In this document: piece by piece, positions 15,001-42,000 of the stretch | Layout: each line of letters starts with the position of its first letter | Numbering within the stretch: position 1 is the stretch's first letter | Source: an uncultured Deferribacteres bacterium | Lineage (GTDB): Bacteria > Zhuqueibacterota > Zhuqueibacteria > Zhuqueibacterales > Geothermadaptataceae | Length of the DNA stretch: 47,846 bases | Direction of reading: 5' to 3' | Assembly (NCBI GenBank): GCA_964014485.1 | Contig: CAXHAT010000038.1 | Span: 1-47,846, forward strand | Program-made: the position numbers

Positions 15001-18000
15001 GCAACATGAATTTTGCCGGCCCTGGCTTTTCCGGGATGCAGCGCCAACCCGATTTTGAGAGCGCCGAACGTGACCGTCTCGTCAGCCTGGACTGCATTGT
15101 TATCGGCTGCGCCGGAATCGCCTTCAACGCCAGTGGGGAGATCAACTGAGACGACATGCGCGCCGCTAAGATTGATTGCTCGACATGCTTCGCCAAAGTT
15201 GCCGCGTAGGGCGCCCTTCGCGCCGGTTCCCAGCATTGCATCGACAACAAGATCAGCCGATTTGATCGCCGTGAGGGTTTCCTCGGAAAAAAGTGTGACG
15301 CCGCCGCCGAGCTTTTGCCAAATTTCTATATTTAATTTCGCGTCTCCTTTGACTGCGTCAAGTTCTCCCAACAGGTGAACGTCGCAATGGAAACCCGCCT
15401 CAGCAAGATGGCGTGCAACGACAAATCCGTCGCCGCCGTTGTTGCCGCGTCCGCAAATGACGATGGTTTTTGGGTGATTTAAAAGCCGCAATTTTTCGAG
15501 ACAGATTTCCGCCGTACGCCTGCCGGCTTGTTCCATCAAAACTGCGCCGGGAAGGCCGAGCTCGTTGATAGAAAAGGCGTCGACGCGCGCCATTTCGGCG
15601 GCGGTTAAAACAGGGGGAGCGGAAAACGCTGCGGACATTCTTGGCAAAACTCCTCAGGCTGTTGTCAAAAAGTTGAAAGAAGTTAAAGAACATTCTTTTG
15701 GAATGCAAGGCGGCGTTCTCTTTCGGTTTGGCGATTCTCTCGAATTTGCCTTCCGAGTTTGTTCGGGATTACATTTTTACGCTCCCTGAAAGGTTGCCGG
15801 GGAAGGCGTAAACAACTGGCTGCTAAAACATCGCAAAATTCTGTTTATATTAAGTTAGCGCTACTTTCTTGCACAGGATTTTGTCCTTGATTGTTTGGCG
15901 TTTTTCGGTTATTTTTGCCGAATGTCCGAGAAAGAAACCCCTTCAAATACATCATCGCGCAAAAAAGACGACATGCCACTGGTGCGGCGTGCGTTAGCAG
16001 GAGATCAAAAAGCGTTCGCCGGCATTATGGAACGCTACGACCGTCAGCTCTACCACCTCATGTACAAAATGGTTCGGAGCAAAGAAGAGTCGGAAGATCT
16101 TGTCCAGGAAGCGTTTATCAAGGCCTTCAACGCGCTGCATACCTTCAACGATGACTATGCGTTTTCGACCTGGCTGTACAAAATTGCCGTAAACAATTGC
16201 ATCGACTTTTTGCGCAAAAAACGCCTGCAGACTTTTTCCTATGACAAGCCTGTTGCTGCAAAAGACGGGGAAATGCGCAGGGAATACCCTGATCCGGAAA
16301 GCGTAACGGATAAGGCGATGCTGGCTTCCGAAAAGACGGGCATTATCAACCACGCGATAGAAAACCTGCCTGAGAAATACAAAACCGCGATTGTTCTGCG
16401 CCATCACAAGGAATTTTCCTACGAAGAAATCGCCCAACATTTGAACCTGCCTCTGGGCACCGTCAAGGCCCGCATTTTTCGCGCCCGCGAAATGTTGAAA
16501 CGCAAACTCAAAGGAAAAATTCTGCCGTAACGGCTATCGCGCAACGGCGATTGGTTTTCGCGATTCGGGGGATTTGCAGGTACAATTCCAGTAGAATTTT
16601 AAAGAATTGTTACAACGAGACCGTTTTTCATCGCTTCATTTACGCGCAGCGGCGTTTCAGTTTGTATCATGTCTGCATCAATTTTTTTTCAACAGGGGGC
16701 GGCGTTTGCGAGCCTGATCGTGCGCGCCGCTGAACCACAACTTGGGATTTGCAACTTATGGAGAACATCATGAGACTCAATATTCTATCGCAGATCATAG
16801 ACGCATATCACGACTTTCTCACGAATGATTCCGACGACTACCGCAACGATTTTTCAACAGACTACGACAGCGAAGTTGAAGACCCGCTGGGCGGAGACGA
16901 AGGAATTACCGATTATGACAGCACCAACTACGACCAGGACTCTTATTAAGGTGGCGCCAGCCTGCTCCTTGCTTCAAGGAACATCCACATTTCGGCCTAG
17001 CTCAATTTTATAAAAAAGCATTGAGTTTGTTGGGCGCGGTCGAAGTGTGCTGTCCCGGCAAATAATTTTTCTGTTAACCCGCTCTGCATTTTCGGGGGCC
17101 TGCCGGTAATAACTTGCCTGAACTGCATTCCATGCAATTTTCTTCTTGCTGACGACTTTCTCACCACGGGCTGCACCTTTTGCAAGAAATTCAAGGATGA
17201 ATGGAGCAAACCATGCACCTCAAGCCCATGTTTTATAAAAAATATATACTGAAAAGCGTCGTTCTTTTCACAGTCGCTATTCTTACGCCTTTGTTTGCGC
17301 AATCGCAAAAGACGATTCCCGAACTTGAGATTCGAGCAAAACAGCCGCTGCCCGGAAAAATGACGATTTACAACATATCGTTTATTGCACCGGATACGCT
17401 GACTGCCCGCGCGTTTTTTGCGCTAAGTTTTCCAAAAGAATTCGATTTGGAAATGCTGGAAATCGCCGATTCGCGCATTGTTGACGGCGGTTTGGAAATC
17501 GGCAGAAAAGATCGTCGGGCGGAGATAAGCCGTAGCGGGTTGGGCAAAAATATTTTGCCTGAAACCCAAGTCGAAATTGAGATTGGCTTGATTCAAAACC
17601 CAAGCGATTTAAGCACTGCGCCGCCTGTAACTTTTATCCTAAAGCCCGACGGCGGGGATGGTGTTATTTACTCAAAAGACGTTTTAATCAATTTTCAAAA
17701 AAAATAAATCGTCGCACATCGAATATTCATGTTTAGGCGGAATCGGCAAAACGATCTATTGATTTGCGGTCAAGCTTGAACCACTGATGCGCGACTACAG
17801 GGAAGTCAAATGAAAATGCGCCTAAGGACGGGCGTGCTCTATGCTGGGATTTCACTGCTTGCTGCAACGCAGTTGATCGCACGGGGCGCCTTGACGAATG
17901 TGACGCTGACGCCGTCAAACACGCAAGCCGGCGTTGGTACAATATACACGGTTTCTTTCACGACCGACGCCGCAGGAAACGGTTTGCCCGCAGACGGGAA

Positions 18001-39000: not shown

Positions 39001-42000
39001 CCGGGGTTGAAGAATTGCTTGATGAAGGCTCTCTTGACGAGACGAGAACTTTCGACGGCGCTTCGCCTTTTGGCTTCGGGCAACAGAGCGAAAAGAGTGA
39101 TTCAACTTTGAGGAATTTGCAGAAGTTGAAAGCTGAAGGCGCGGTTGAAGATTCTGCGAATATCGCCAGTTTATCCGGGATGGCCAGGCGGAAGGCGATG
39201 ATTCGCAGGGAGCAGGATATGAATGACGGATTTCGGCTGTATAAAGAAAATAAATTTAAAGAAGCGATCGGCGTTTTTGAAAAGGTGGTGGCGGATTTCC
39301 CTACTTACAAAAAAGCGCTCAGGGTTCTCGGCAACGCCTATTTCCGTACGAACGCTTATGAAAAAGCGATCATGACGTACCAGACAATTATCGCTTTTGA
39401 TCCCATCGATTCAGTTTCTTTTGAAAATATGGCGACGGCTTACTTGAAACAGTCAAACCCGAGAAAAGCCGTCGAAGCTTTGCGTGCCCTGCTCGATATT
39501 GACTCAAGCCGTGATGATATTCGGGTGAAAATTGAAAATATCAGTTCAAAAGAAGCGGCTTAAATTTGAGCGTTTATTGTTGGGCCTGTGCAAATTTAAC
39601 CATTTTGAAGCGTTCTATCCGATAATCGGGATAGTAGCCGTGCAAAATAATATCATCCTCATAAACGCCGATTTTGAGCGCATTTAACGTGAGTGCAAAT
39701 CGGTGCAGCATCTCGCCGTCGCGGTCAAAAATTTCCAGCCAACTGGCCGCACGATTCGTTTCAGGCGCCACGAGAACGTAAAGCTCGTCCTTGTTCCACA
39801 CGAGATCATAAACAATTCGCTGTCGAATGACGCTTTTGACGCGGCCGTTTTTCATTTCGACAACGGGCGGCGAGATTTTAAACACCGGCTCAAATTCGAT
39901 AATATTTTTCGCGCGCCCGTTTGCGTGAAAAAAGTAGAGCCGATAAGGATTGATCAAGCAAAAGGCCGCTTCGTTTCTCGCGTTAACCGCCGCAAACCCC
40001 TGATTTAAAGCCTCACCCTGCACAGGATCCACCGAACGCTCCGGCGCAAACTCCCTGATTAATCTGCCTGAACGATCGTATGCGGCAAGAACGTAAGGCG
40101 CCGGGCTGGTACGGTGAACAAGAAAATCGCCGTTTGTCAAAAAATCAATGTCGTGGGGCTTCCCTTCAATCTCGAGCGTTCCTTGACGTTCGCCTTTTAA
40201 ATTCCACCAAACAAGCTTCCCTTTTTCATCAATAACCGCAACTTCGCGTACATTGGCAACCATGGCGACCGGCAGCTTTAGCAGCTCTGAGCCGGAGGTG
40301 AACATTTGCCATTTGCGGATGAATTTTAGCTCAGGCGACAGCACGACAACGGCGCTTTCCTGCAGGTCAATCGCCGTCACATATTCTCCGGCGACGTTCA
40401 GGTGATGCAGTCTTTTCAGGTTAACTTTGGCGCGGTAAGCCTCTGTCGATCCGAATTTGGCGGTTGACACGAGTTGCAGAGCGTCGTCCAGGCTTTTGCC
40501 GTAATAAGGCATGGGTGATTTGATGACTTTCGGCGGCGGCAAATCGCTGGAAATGGAAAGGGTGGGGAAAAGCTCCGGGCGAATGAAAGTGAGCGTCCAA
40601 TGGCGATATTCGGACGGTATTTTTTCGAGGAGGTCAATCGGGCCGAATCGAAAAAAAGCAACGATGACAAGGGCAAGGAAGAAAAGCGTTTTGATAAACG
40701 TTTTCATGCGACGGTTTAGCGGCCAAATCCGGCTTCTTCCGCAGTGACGATAAAGGTTTCATAAAGGGAAATCGCCATGCCGAGCAGAAACATGAGCCAC
40801 AAAATGGAGACGACGCTGAAAGCGACCTCAACGCCCATGCTTGGCGCAAGCATAATGAACAAATTGGTAGGGACGGGCAAGCTGAAGATGCTGATAACGG
40901 TGATGATAATGACCACGGCGAGCACTTTGCTTTTTTGTTGCTGCGTCCCCCCGCCAAACCAGCCGATCAGATAGAGCAACAAACCGATGGAAATGGCGAC
41001 GTAAATGCCTTCGCTTGGGAGGCGGTCGATGTATGCGATGATTTTATCGAGCGCGTATGGCGGGAGCTCCGTTGAGTCGGCGGCGGCCCCTGTTAGGCTG
41101 TCAGGCTGCATTGGTTTCCCTTTCTTCCTTTGTCGTCAAAAAATCAGAGAAATGGTTTTGAAAATAACAATAAAGCGTGAAATGTCAATTGAAAACCTTC
41201 CGGCGCAATTGCGTGAAATTTCTTGATTTGAGCGCGTTTTTGTTCTTAATTGCCGCCAACCAATACGTGCCGTCCGGAGAGATGATTCATGAAAAAACAG
41301 ACCGGCGCGATTCTCAAGAAATCGAGCGATATTCTTCAGAAACGCAAACAGCAGACCGTCGAAGTTTACAAAAGGTACGAAAGTTTCGTCCCCTTGCTGA
41401 CTTTTTCATTTGGCTTTACAATTGACACGTTCACGTTGAGCGTCGTCAATATTGTCGACCATCTCACGCTGTTGTTTTATACCATCTTCGCCGGAGGGAT
41501 CATCCTGCTGACAGGCATGCTGCAAACGGGACAGATTTCGCATCCAAAATTGTTGAAATTTGAAAAGTGGTATCCCGTCGCGCTGCAATTTTTTGTCGGG
41601 AGCTTGTTTTCCGCCTACTTTGTTTATTACTTCAAAAGCGCTTCGGTCAATCAATCCGTTATTTTTCTTGGCCTGCTCCTTTTCCTGCTCGTCGCTAATG
41701 AACTTCTCGGCAACAAGCTGTCAAATTTGGCGCTTTTGAGTACGCTCTACTTTTTCACCACGTTCGCGTTCCTCACATTTTTCATTCCAGTGTTGATGAA
41801 AAGTATCGCTCCCTGGATGTTCTACGTCAGCGGTGCGATCAGTTTTCTGCTGACGGGTGGAATTCTCGCGTTTGTCTTCCGAAAAATCGTCAAGCAGCAT
41901 GTCAAAAAAATCATCGCGCCTGCAATTGCCGTTTCGGCGGCGTTTCTGACAATGATTCTTCTTTACAGAATGAATTATATCCCGCCTGTGCCGCTTTCGC

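Follow-up and report, generated by a model that had tools for sequence, protein, structure and literature searches.

Gene content and conservation of the locus

The window analyzed here, a 47,846-nucleotide stretch of DNA from an uncultured bacterium of the phylum Zhuqueibacterota, carries four genes on the plus strand in the order small protein, giant surface protein, barrel-TPR protein, and kinase/phosphatase, an order that the initial annotation had described correctly. The small protein ORF (positions 17201/17213 to 17707) encodes 164 to 168 aa comprising a signal peptide and one domain, the giant gene (17810 to 33712) encodes 5,300 aa, the barrel-TPR ORF as listed runs from 33848 to 36031, and the kinase/phosphatase gene (36087 to 39563) encodes 1,158 aa. 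A paralogous locus on contig C10 has the same order followed by a STAS gene, again as annotated. The protein pairs of the two loci had been put at 30 to 42% identity; tblastn gives 34% for the barrel-TPR proteins, 42% for the kinase/phosphatases, 32 to 37% for the giants, and 27 to 30% for the small proteins. The giants align over a 1,541-aa segment (E 5e-178) that covers residues 3808 to 5299 of the window protein.

The STAS gene is absent from the window locus, where the genes that follow lie on the opposite strand. The window locus is a secondary, STAS-less copy, common to four sampled genomes of one family; its branch is the longest in the tree, and it is a faster-evolving duplicate. Its STAS proteins are presumably those that serve the primary locus, and, given the lack of an adjoining STAS gene and its long branch, it may have drifted to another role.

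The conservation of the barrel-TPR/kinase-phosphatase pairing across the phylum is confirmed. The order giant, barrel, kinase/phosphatase was found in 20 of 20 loci inspected (19 other genomes, 17 families), most junctions being between a few and ~150 bases long. The kinase/phosphatase is present in 121 of 121 phylum genomes (E ≤ 1e-30) and the periplasmic arm of the barrel protein in 115 of 121 (E ≤ 1e-8). In 110 of the 121 genomes, across 23 families, the arm is encoded immediately before the kinase/phosphatase in the same orientation. Five further genomes have the two matches on different contigs, with the arm at most ~5 kb from a contig start, and we read these as assembly breaks. These tallies include one unpublished genome (G087); without it they become 120 of 120, 114 of 120, and 109 of 120, respectively.

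The giant surface protein and its PorV/PorQ-family barrel

The giant reading frame is stop-free when translated, and its product consists of a signal peptide, a tip domain, 13 tandem 199-aa repeats, a nonrepetitive CARDB-like region, and a type IX secretion system (T9SS) C-terminal domain. It had been described as belonging to no family; scanned in pieces, however, it matches Big_1 (73.5 bits; cut-off, 34.9), CARDB (33.5 bits; cut-off, 22.7), and a T9SS tail. The Big_1 matches are located in the repeat array (18707 to 26659, plus strand; residues ~300 to 2950), which is built of ~13 units with two Ig-like domains each. Identity at a lag of 199 residues is 69%, a motif recurs 12 times at a spacing of exactly 199 aa, and neighboring units are 53 to 88% identical. 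The sorting domain (33419 to 33700, plus strand; residues ~5204 to 5297) matches TIGR04183 Por_Secre_tail at 26.7 bits (cut-off, 23), finds the C terminus of the PorZ model as its top local match (32.8 bits), and reaches an E value of 1e-16 with a tail HMM built in this analysis. The protein contains zero cysteine residues, and its orthologues range from 1,802 to 3,899 aa. The small protein, hydrophobic at its N terminus, shares homology in alignments with the distal, N-terminal domain of the giants and with its counterparts at other loci; it matched no Pfam or NCBIfam family and gave leads only, toward Ig-like folds of the BslA/DUF2808 type.

Between the giant and the barrel lies a noncoding stretch (33713 to 34120) with three short palindromic repeat elements, which yield 96 blastn HSPs spread over dozens of contigs, many of them in both orientations. 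In the barrel ORF as listed (727 aa), the initial ~91 codons span these elements, and the likely start is a TTG at ~34121, which gives a protein of ~636 aa (34121 to 36031, plus strand), close to the 635 to 671 aa of its orthologues. The protein had been annotated as a 700-aa PorV-like barrel with a TPR arm; the family and the arm are supported, and the protein is probably shorter. NCBIfam PorV_fam matches at 121.5 bits (cut-off, 90), with the PorV, PorQ, and PorV2 equivalog models scoring far under their cut-offs, and TPR_2 matches at 50.7 bits. The predicted model (pLDDT, 85.4) finds as its best solved matches in Foldseek the PorV chains 8gl6_F and 6h3i_F (TM by target, 0.67 to 0.69), both from SprA complexes. 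The beta-barrel part (34328 to 35041; ORF residues 161 to 398, with strands at model residues 66 to 303) matches PorV first and FadL next. The remainder, a helical/TPR arm (35045 to 36028; ORF residues 400 to 727) recognized from predicted secondary structure and TPR families, is modeled as three helices (45, 58, and 30 residues) that lead into TPR hairpins. From this topology, the 330-residue arm would extend into the periplasm.

The genome encodes a type IX system (SprA, 872 bits; PorU, 825 bits), and 197 ORFs end in a T9SS tail; a search for GldM gave no match in this genome and none in the control genomes either, so the negative carries little weight. Of the 27 PorV-like genes (E ≤ 1e-20), 16 are preceded by a same-strand ORF with a T9SS tail at a distance of no more than 1.5 kb, and for 13 of these the distance is no more than 150 bp. 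Against a background of ~197 tailed ORFs in an 8.4-Mb genome, for which we estimate a chance pairing of <5% per gene, the succession of a tailed cargo gene and a PorV-like barrel gene of its own recurs generally in this genome, far above chance, a pattern added by this analysis. From this pairing and the barrel fold, we infer that the giant is retained on the surface by the barrel encoded directly downstream. Such an arrangement would resemble that of PorZ, described as anchored by PorQ with its C-terminal domain retained (PMC10947112), or that of SprB, described as binding SprF (PMC9143113).

The membrane kinase/phosphatase and its proposed STAS partners

The kinase/phosphatase consists, in order, of an RsbW-type kinase, a helix, a periplasmic loop, a second helix, HAMP (C10 copy), a PP2C phosphatase, a double helix-turn-helix (HTH) module, an acidic linker, and TPRs. 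Domain scans of the window copy give HATPase_c_2 (residues 13 to 139), SpoIIE (471 to 666), and TPR (1051 to 1144), and two hydrophobic helices are present. The kinase domain (36123 to 36503, plus strand) scores 102.4 bits, and its residues E49, N53, H57, D85, G87, and G107 to G113 are invariant in 21 orthologues, as are the motif aspartates and glycines of the phosphatase domain (37497 to 38084, plus strand; 169 bits). Kinase and phosphatase are both intact. A presumed sensor between them (36582 to 37187, plus strand) was delimited by hydropathy as a helix (166 to 191), a periplasmic loop (192 to 341), and a helix (342 to 367). The claimed HAMP domain is found in the C10 copy (Pfam, 25.3 bits versus a cut-off of 25), but the window copy has none at E ≤ 0.01. 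The module at residues 675 to 800, which the initial annotation omitted, is a transposase-type double HTH (38109 to 38486, plus strand; HTH_23) with matches to IS481 (31.8 bits) and IS3 (25.3 bits) models over residues 679 to 804, and every one of the 20 loci retains it (E values between 5e-26 and 9e-53). The C-terminal TPR domain (39210 to 39527, plus strand; residues ~1042 to 1147) matches TPR_16 (37.9 bits) and related families. It follows the second membrane helix and lies alongside the phosphatase, a topology that would place it in the cytoplasm and so outside the trans-envelope line to which it had been assigned. The protein has 439 database relatives, and the 120 of these that were listed carry kinase and phosphatase domains, most with TPRs, under no name other than "SpoIIE family protein phosphatase" or similar.

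A STAS-domain protein, STAS-A, follows the kinase/phosphatase in 16 of 20 loci, the four others being two window-type duplicates, one contig end, and one locus in genome G009. Its fold matches SpoIIAA with a Z score of 15.9 (residues 1 to 124 compared). S60 and S61 are invariant, and S61 aligns to Ser58 of SpoIIAA, the phosphorylation site, a position occupied by alanine in the 1tid entry. The C-terminal domain is homologous to the second half of the HTH module of the kinase/phosphatase (hhalign probability, 98.4%; E 4.9e-15), and Pfam HTH_21 and HTH_32 are matched in 4 and 5 of 17 STAS proteins, respectively. Judged by these profiles, the STAS partner bears a transposase-type HTH domain that is also found in the kinase/phosphatase, a feature new to this study.

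A second STAS-HTH paralogue, STAS-B, occurs in 121 of 121 genomes and retains, like STAS-A, the serine aligned to the SpoIIAA phosphoserine. In 18 of 18 loci it has a GT5 gene on one side and Wza-like and Wzc-like genes on the other, with an epimerase and a sugar transferase following in 17 (the 18th locus is cut). STAS-B heads a conserved Wza/Wzc polysaccharide-export operon, likewise added by this analysis, just as sypA heads its locus in Vibrio fischeri: the syp polysaccharide locus begins with the gene for SypA, and SypE is described as its kinase or phosphatase (PMC4517449). A polysaccharide layer in Anabaena is also described as being under a partner-switch-like module (bioRxiv 10.64898/2026.04.08.717354). 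The STAS-B cluster has no kinase or phosphatase of its own. The kinase/phosphatase of our locus resembles SypE, with the sensor replacing the receiver domain of SypE, and its serine kinase and PP2C phosphatase, flanking the helix-loop-helix sensor, would act on STAS-A of the primary locus and on STAS-B. The genome encodes at least six other RsbW-like kinases and several PP2C proteins, so another enzyme could serve STAS-B. As its output, the switch would govern how much exopolysaccharide is made and probably also the adhesin operon, with no release of a sigma factor.

The initial annotation had the switch set a sigma factor; in such a scheme, the RsbW-type domain would be an anti-sigma factor, the STAS protein its antagonist, and an ECF or SigB-like sigma factor the endpoint. 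Anti-sigma-B RsbW models are indeed the best NCBIfam matches to residues 9 to 143, but their scores (81 and 74.6 bits) fall far under the cut-offs (145 and 155). An ECF-type sigma factor gene (15895 to 16530, plus strand; Sigma70_r2/r4_2) precedes the window locus by 0.7 kb, and G103:C2 is the sole other window-type locus to share this placement; the gene is missing upstream in a further one (G054:C43) and in the 20 inspected loci, which makes it a neighbor rather than a conserved part of the system. ECF sigma factors are not known to partner RsbW-type kinases. Three sigma-70-family genes of ~290 aa lie elsewhere in the genome, but no SigB/F/G-family sigma factor scores over the cut-off in this genome (best, 115.6 bits versus 234). 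Moreover, the STAS proteins have an HTH output-type domain of their own, one of them heads a polysaccharide operon, and for the closest analogue, SypA, there is no evidence pointing to a role as an anti-sigma antagonist (PMC4517449). We regard the sigma factor endpoint as highly improbable.

A candidate link between surface fiber and polysaccharide control

Across an uncultured phylum, a giant secreted surface protein, a barrel, and a membrane switch are encoded side by side (20 of 20 loci inspected), an adjacency that suggests a so far undescribed connection of a surface fiber with the control of slime production. Beyond the family assignments, what we propose draws on gene order and models: a phylum-wide module of adhesin, anchor, and switch, to which we give roughly an even chance, in which the adhesin is held by the barrel while STAS-HTH proteins are the targets of a SypE/SypA-like switch. 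Its input would most likely come from the arm touching the sensor loop and reporting inward the state of the surface fiber (secreted, loaded, or lost), and this is the weakest step. A relay of surface state through the PorV-TPR partner had been proposed before; the gene order, families, and conservation on which it drew hold up, but the contact between arm and loop is less secure. The predicted complex of the two scores 0.40 (runs, 0.38 to 0.42; best of three controls, 0.00), a value that by calibration misleads in more cases than not, except where the pairing is likely beforehand. Of 157 solved complexes, 116 reached the mark of this test, as did 2 of 215 mismatched pairs; only 18 of those 157 complexes, plus both passing mismatches, did so at scores of 0.60 or less. 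Between runs, at least 96% of contacts are shared, with partner pLDDT at or above 80. These models weakly suggest that the arm may physically contact the periplasmic loop. The loop itself is poorly conserved, the window sequence finding 3 of 20 loci at E ≤ 1e-4, so that an interface conserved between arm and loop is not evident.

The same adjacency and the same weakly predicted contact would also fit signaling from the inside out, in which the state of the inner-membrane protein passes via the arm to the barrel and determines whether the giant is secreted, retained, or released, so that the cytoplasm controls adhesion instead of sensing it. Outer-membrane T9SS and gliding proteins of Bacteroidota are described as driven from inside through periplasmic links (PMC12635249), yet the operon contains no motor or energy source, and two STAS-HTH substrates would be left unexplained. 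HAMP-type transmitters, moreover, are known as outside-in devices. We find this direction quite improbable.

A stronger competitor, which we consider possible but clearly less probable than the adhesin-anchor-switch module, is that the parts share a process with no relay between them. The arm would then be a PorE-like structural tether of the long fiber to the cell wall or other envelope parts, and the kinase/phosphatase would sense an unrelated envelope or periplasmic cue via its loop, sitting in the operon as a regulator of adhesin and polysaccharide. Periplasmic OmpA domains are fused to further long PorV-like barrels in this genome (on contigs C129, C143, and C8), and one on C128 carries TPRs and is followed by a PD40-propeller gene, all of them PorE-like modules. 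An anchoring complex of PorP, PorE, and PG1035 is described, in which PG1035 binds PorP and PorE (PMC9143113; PMC10947112). The loop is also far more variable than the arm, and the complex score is weak. Against a mere tether, domain scans find no peptidoglycan-binding domain in the arm, and all three controls scored 0.00 against the 0.40 of the arm-loop pair. The direct junction of arm and kinase/phosphatase genes, seen in 110 of 121 genomes and spanning between a few and ~150 bases in the 20 loci inspected, is tighter than coregulation alone usually needs.

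A conserved gene order and a secondary duplicate

Four genes of the window lie head to tail on the + strand: an ORF for a small protein (17201/17213-17707), one for a giant protein of 5300 aa (17810-33712), one for a barrel-TPR protein listed at 727 aa (33848-36031), and one for a kinase/phosphatase of 1158 aa (36087-39563). The genes 3' of this operon (39574-40707 and 40716-41111) occupy the opposite strand and match no family in Pfam or NCBIfam. Promoter and terminator scans of the operon ends and of the gap between the giant and barrel genes gave counts no higher than those of shuffled sequence and are therefore uninformative on the limits of the operon. 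The G+C content, about 0.48 to 0.53 outside, rises to 0.57 to 0.61 across the giant gene, in keeping with its Thr/Ala/Gly-rich repeats. Elsewhere in the window, a 702-aa protein (10637-12745, minus strand) combines multiheme cytochrome c motifs with a long TPR array; its heme part holds an MtrC/MtrF-like domain, Cytochrome_C7, and paired CXXCH motifs.

The initial annotation described the same gene order at a paralogous locus on contig C10 and proposed that it was kept across the phylum, and our survey clearly indicates that this order is real and robust. The C10 locus has an identical gene order, followed by a gene for a 230-aa STAS protein, which we call STAS-A. The kinase/phosphatase is present in 121 of 121 sampled phylum genomes (E ≤ 1e-30), and the order giant, barrel-TPR, kinase/phosphatase is found on a single strand with short gaps at all 20 of the 20 loci that we fetched from 19 other genomes in 17 families. 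The periplasmic arm of the barrel-TPR protein by itself matches in 115 of the 121 genomes, and in 110 the two matches share a strand, with the arm directly 5' of the kinase/phosphatase; a further 5 genomes have them on separate contigs, with the arm no more than about 5 kb from its contig's start, cases that we read as assembly breaks. These tallies take in one unpublished genome (G087); without it they become 120/120, 114/120, and 109/120. At the gene level, the coupling proposed earlier is correct.

The claim that the order ends in a STAS gene holds in part. A STAS gene comes next at 16 of the 20 loci, the exceptions being two duplicates of the window type, one locus truncated where its contig stops, and genome G009; the window locus itself has none. 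We inferred a quick maximum-likelihood tree from 43 kinase/phosphatase sequences out of 45 loci submitted, with L009, from an unpublished genome, excluded. In it, the window copy groups with G103:C2, G117:C310, and G054:C43 (SH-aLRT 100), and this clade is sister to the single copies of the neighboring family f2 (SH-aLRT 95). The C10-type copies from the same family as the window cluster apart from it, and within its clade the window copy has the longest branch (1.13). The STAS gene is missing also at both inspected window-type loci, G103:C2 and G054:C43. The window locus is therefore a secondary, STAS-less duplicate that half of the genomes sampled from its family share (4 of 8), and the C10-type locus is the phylum-wide form. 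A gene for a TPR protein of about 375 aa often lies just 5' of this primary operon (at 1733-2851 of L001, the fetched C10 region, and also at loci L034, L043, and L044) and is absent 5' of the window copy. A third, more distant class of kinase/phosphatase occurs in family f3 as frames of 1860 to 1990 aa with 38 to 41% identity over residues 2-674 (G001:C6, G013:C23, G048:C248, G050:C39, and G089:C32, for example).

The giant cargo and its barrel

The N-terminus of the giant is hydrophobic with a basic start, as judged by eye, and the first domain of the giant and the small protein are homologues. Residues ~300 to 2950 are made up of ~13 tandem units of 199 aa, with 69% identity at lag 199 and up to 88% between adjoining units. 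Tandem Repeats Finder found no repeats in the giant because the unit, at 597 bases, is longer than the 500-base period limit of the program; they are seen at the protein level. The units match Big_1 at 73.5 bits (cutoff, 34.9), and the nonrepetitive region after them matches CARDB at 33.5 bits (cutoff, 22.7). The C-terminal domain (residues ~5204-5297 of 5300) scores 26.7 bits against the T9SS type A tail model TIGR04183 (cutoff, 23), and its top match is the C-terminus of the PorZ model, at 32.8 bits. It stands, as a type A sorting domain should, at the extreme C-terminus; the protein opens with a signal peptide, and the genome encodes the translocon. The giant contains no cysteine at all. 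The giant had been described as belonging to no family, which is right for scans of the whole protein and fails when it is scanned in pieces, since Big_1, CARDB, and TIGR04183 then all score above cutoff.

We found no family for the small protein (DUF2808 appeared in 2 of 17 sequences and BslA in 1 of 17, with E values of 0.017 to 0.056) and no solved relative at E < 0.1; a feature match to BslB in the Atlas (0.92) is a lead only. Its gene lies 5' of the giant in 9 of the 17 fetched loci that include the giant's start, as well as at C10 and at both other window-type loci. At E ≤ 1e-4, the small gene is frequent without being universal.

Three short palindromic repeat elements stand back to back between the giant and barrel genes (33713-34140). 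Each is found in either orientation across dozens of contigs (96 blastn HSPs), as would be expected of intergenic repeats of the REP or MITE type, which they resemble. The barrel ORF as listed begins with ~91 codons that overlie these elements; a start at about 34121 yields a normal signal peptide and a length as in the orthologues. The barrel scores 121.5 bits against the PorV_fam model of NCBIfam (NF033709; cutoff, 90) and 21 bits against the Pfam PorV model by itself (cutoff, 27), and it falls below the equivalog cutoffs for PorV (NF033710, 59 versus 250 bits), PorQ (NF033711, 55.2 versus 220), and PorV2 (NF052325, 59 versus 325). By these profile scores, the protein is a member of the PorV/PorQ family, yet none of its named orthologues. 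An AlphaFold model of the barrel-TPR protein, built with 22 orthologues (mean pLDDT, 85.4), comprises a barrel, helices of 45, 58, and 30 residues, and then TPR hairpins. The best solved matches of the barrel in Foldseek are PorV chains from SprA translocon complexes, 8gl6_F (E 4.7e-10; TM by target, 0.67) and 6h3i_F (0.69), with FadL/TodX next in rank; the modeled fold is thus a FadL-like outer-membrane beta-barrel resembling solved PorV. The gene pairing and this fold suggest that the barrel may bind a T9SS substrate by its C-terminal domain.

The host genome encodes SprA (872 bits) and PorU (825 bits); the GldM/PorM model TIGR03517 has no match in it and is also silent in all 14 control genomes. 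HMMs of the barrel and of the tail, built from the window sequences and run over a crude ORF set of the genome, recovered 37 PorV-like ORFs and 197 ORFs with a terminal T9SS tail. Of the PorV-like ORFs, 27 reach E ≤ 1e-20, and for 16 of these the 1.5 kb upstream contain a tailed ORF in the same orientation; in 13 of the 16 pairs the distance is within 150 bases. A cargo gene followed by its own barrel gene is a general rule in this genome.

Several of these barrels carry additional modules (loci L156-L158 and L160, on contigs C129, C143, C8, and C128). The long barrels on C129 and C143, each encoded directly 3' of a gene for a DUF11-repeat T9SS cargo, have added CARDB, DUF11, and two OmpA domains; the C8 barrel has one extra OmpA domain; and the C128 barrel has an extra TPR, with a PD40-propeller gene downstream. 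Such fusions look like PorP-PorE-type anchoring merged into a single protein. Most economically, each barrel would serve the cargo encoded upstream as a private shuttle or anchor, and its periplasmic extension would fasten the barrel to something inside. These data suggest that type A-like cargo outside the Bacteroidota may commonly have dedicated shuttles or anchors of the PorV family, in contrast to Flavobacterium johnsoniae, all of whose type A tails are said to use a single PorV (PMC12618676). Two CHAT proteins lie near barrels of this genome: a CHASE2-CHAT protein (2503-5001 of L159, on contig C152, minus strand) downstream of a 733-aa PorV-like barrel with no recognized extra domain, and another near the C128 barrel.

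The kinase/phosphatase and two STAS-HTH proteins

The kinase/phosphatase opens with an RsbW-type kinase domain (HATPase_c_2, residues 13-139; 102.4 bits versus 27.4) in which E49, N53, H57, D85, G87, and G107-G113 are invariant across 21 orthologues; we take these residues to be the N and G boxes that bind ATP. Residues 140-470 consist of hydrophobic helices (166-191 and 342-367) and the 150-residue loop that they flank. A HAMP domain (PF00672) is matched at 359-402 of the C10 paralogue with 25.3 bits against a cutoff of 25; the window copy gives no such match at E ≤ 0.01, and the region is alignable across orthologues. The SpoIIE/PP2C domain (PF07228, 471-666) scores 169 bits versus 25, and its aspartates D462, D465, D480, D606, D658, and D659, presumably the metal ligands, are invariant in the 21 orthologues. 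After it come a transposase-type double HTH (675-800), an acidic linker, and TPRs at about 1042-1147; no receiver (REC) domain was found with Pfam or NCBIfam. The topology suggests that only the loop is periplasmic and that the C-terminal TPRs are cytoplasmic. An IS481/IS3-type transposase identity for the HTH module was ruled out: its matches are local and below cutoff (IS481, 31.8 versus 224 bits; HTH_23, 16.8 versus 24.6), and no rve/DDE catalytic domain was found with it. The module is instead a derived HTH.

Overall, the sequence of the protein suggests that it works like SypE of Vibrio fischeri without being a member of that group. It misses all Sia/Rsb-type equivalog cutoffs in NCBIfam by a wide margin, including those of RsbW (NF003144, 81 versus 145 bits; TIGR01924, 74.6 versus 155), the SiaA match is weak (46.6 bits), and its database relatives are named merely "SpoIIE family protein phosphatase" or similar. 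The initial annotation had the switch set a sigma factor, which was probably wrong. No sigma factor of the SigB/F/G family exceeds its cutoff in the genome (best, 115.6 versus 234 bits), and with the RsbW scores so far under theirs we rejected an identity as the anti-sigma factor RsbW. The ECF sigma gene was rejected as a part of the system as well, being conserved at G103:C2 only.

The candidate substrates are two STAS proteins encoded outside the window, STAS-A on C10 and a paralogue, STAS-B, on C239, which match PF01740 at 65.3 bits each (cutoff, 22.6). The STAS proteins of 17 loci are 48 to 72% identical to the C10 protein and share a near-invariant STAS domain, a linker that is disordered, and a C-terminal helical domain that is conserved, modeled with block pLDDT values of 66 to 89, < 50, and 85 to 93, respectively. 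A structural search with residues 1-124 aligned the STAS part with SpoIIAA (1tid_B; Z 15.9, rmsd 2.3 Å, 115 residues aligned). S61, invariant along with S60 in the 17 STAS-A proteins, aligns with SpoIIAA residue 58, an alanine in the 1tid entry; we take Ser58 of SpoIIAA to be its phospho-site. A domain over cutoff, a SpoIIAA-like fold, and a serine at the phospho-site position together mark these as STAS proteins. Their C-terminal domain matches HTH_21 in 4 and HTH_32 in 5 of the 17 members, and the kinase/phosphatase holds a homologue of it in its second HTH (hhalign probability, 98.4%; E 4.9e-15). A search with the STAS alignment gave 523 relatives; the best 80 are all from assemblies of metagenomes or uncultured bacteria, variously labeled KSB1, Calditrichaeota, Cytophagia, Deferribacteres, and others. 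The Atlas holds clusters of 220- to 250-aa STAS proteins whose few labeled members are Zixibacteria, Calditrichota, and Eisenbacteria, a lead only.

STAS-B, the second STAS-HTH protein of the genome (E 3.5e-50), is found in 121 of 121 genomes and points to polysaccharide export. At 18 of 18 loci its gene has a GT5 gene on one side and Wza-like and Wzc-like genes on the other, with an epimerase and a priming sugar transferase next in 17 and the remaining locus cut; on C239, this cluster spans 2245-10397 of L053 on the minus strand. We scanned the window, L001, and L053 for the consensus sigma-54 motif. The pattern gave fewer matches than shuffles in all three and none 5' of either giant operon; one motif with two mismatches about 115 bases 5' of STAS-B (L053 8763-8778, minus strand) is not above chance. 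A genome search at E ≤ 1e-15 found no dedicated third STAS-HTH protein for the window copy and returned three STAS matches: STAS-A, STAS-B, and a 424-aa protein on C9 (64288-65562). The last begins with a STAS domain that is a relative of STAS-A (E 1.3e-28), followed by 290 further residues.

Known relatives and a possible relay across the envelope

All parts of the system seem to fall in known superfamilies, and none in a named orthologue group; by analogy, the whole would work like a SypE/SypA-like switch joined to an anchor of the PorQ-PorZ or SprF-SprB type. The syp locus contains Wza-like and Wzc-like genes. SypE likewise holds an RsbW-like serine kinase and an opposing PP2C phosphatase in a single polypeptide, and its small STAS substrate, SypA, is encoded first in a polysaccharide locus, as STAS-B heads the Wza/Wzc operon, and has an output other than a sigma factor (PMC4517449). 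Phosphorylation of SypA Ser56 by SypE is reported to block biofilm formation, with no sign of an anti-sigma role for SypA (PMC4517449). SypE, however, is a cytoplasmic response regulator with a central receiver. The protein here lacks the receiver and has two membrane helices, a periplasmic loop, a HAMP-like linker, a double HTH, and C-terminal TPRs; its gene lies in an adhesin operon, not a polysaccharide locus, and its putative STAS substrates are two, each with an extra HTH-type domain. In Anabaena, too, a partner-switch-like module is described as controlling a polysaccharide layer (bioRxiv 10.64898/2026.04.08.717354). The SiaA/SiaB/SiaC and HsbR/HsbA systems of Pseudomonas and RsbU/RsbV/RsbW of Bacillus resemble ours in that biofilm or stress responses are controlled by a PP2C phosphatase, membrane-bound or regulated, together with a serine/threonine kinase and a substrate of the STAS type. 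In these systems, kinase and phosphatase are separate proteins (SiaA/B, RsbU/W) or their fusion is cytoplasmic, and none is known to be tied to T9SS cargo or an outer-membrane barrel.

On the secretion side, a close likeness is to PorQ-PorZ and PorV-PorU of Porphyromonas gingivalis: our barrel is a PorV_fam member and the tail of the giant is closest to the PorZ C-terminus. PorZ is described as a T9SS substrate whose uncleaved tail is held on the surface by PorQ (PMC10947112). Our barrel differs in its 330-residue periplasmic arm and in missing the PorV, PorQ, and PorV2 cutoffs, and the putative cargo is a 5300-aa repeat protein rather than a component of the secretion system. Type B cargo is reported to have cognate PorP/SprF-like shuttles, with a dedicated barrel, encoded 3' of the giant adhesin, needed for its secretion or anchorage (PMC12618676, PMC9143113); PorE is a periplasmic TPR-containing partner bound to such a barrel, as in the PorP-PorE-PG1035 complex, alongside the SprB-SprF pair (PMC9143113). 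A cargo gene followed by a barrel gene, and several barrels fused to TPR or OmpA, recall these arrangements. The tail here, however, is type A and PorZ-like, the barrel is of the PorV/PorQ rather than the PorP/SprF family, and barrel and periplasmic module make up one protein instead of two.

Among the papers listed by our literature searches, judged by title and abstract, none links type IX secretion, its cargo, or PorV-like barrels with partner switching, and the one paper on the phylum that was searched makes no mention of secretion, T9SS, adhesins, or sigma factors. We found no published record of the conserved trio of a type IX cargo, its own armed PorV-family barrel, and a SypE-like kinase/phosphatase, together in at least 110 of 121 phylum genomes, of the HTH on the STAS substrates, or of one of these substrates heading the polysaccharide-export operon.

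These parts could form a phylum-universal, trans-envelope sensor of surface state. A type IX-secreted giant fiber would be held by its dedicated PorV-like barrel; the periplasmic TPR arm of the barrel would contact the sensor loop of the inner-membrane kinase/phosphatase; this enzyme would set the phosphorylation of the two STAS-HTH proteins; and these would switch on polysaccharide export and adhesin production. We consider the full chain speculative and rather unlikely as a whole. If true, attachment of or load on the fiber would directly drive matrix production with neither a sigma factor nor a two-component system. How bacteria sense the engagement of their appendages is an open question beyond a few model systems, and a real relay would provide a testable model that couples adhesion to matrix production.

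A relay through the barrel-TPR protein to the switch was already part of the initial annotation and is still unproven. A purely structural arm, with no relay, is a live alternative, and the OmpA-bearing PorV-like paralogues in the same genome fit it. For the relay, we predicted the complex of the arm (328 residues, 22-row alignment) with the periplasmic loop (154 residues, 21 rows). The score was 0.40 (0.38 to 0.42), against 0.00 for the best of three controls, with at least 96% of contacts agreeing between runs and a partner pLDDT of at least 80. In this test, 116 of 157 solved complexes pass the mark, as do 2 of 215 mismatched pairs; passing scores of 0.60 or under account for only 18 of the 157 solved complexes, plus both passing mismatches. 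The verdict is "weak support." Taken with the very tight, universal adjacency of the two genes as a prior, this prediction makes a physical arm-loop relay about an even call.
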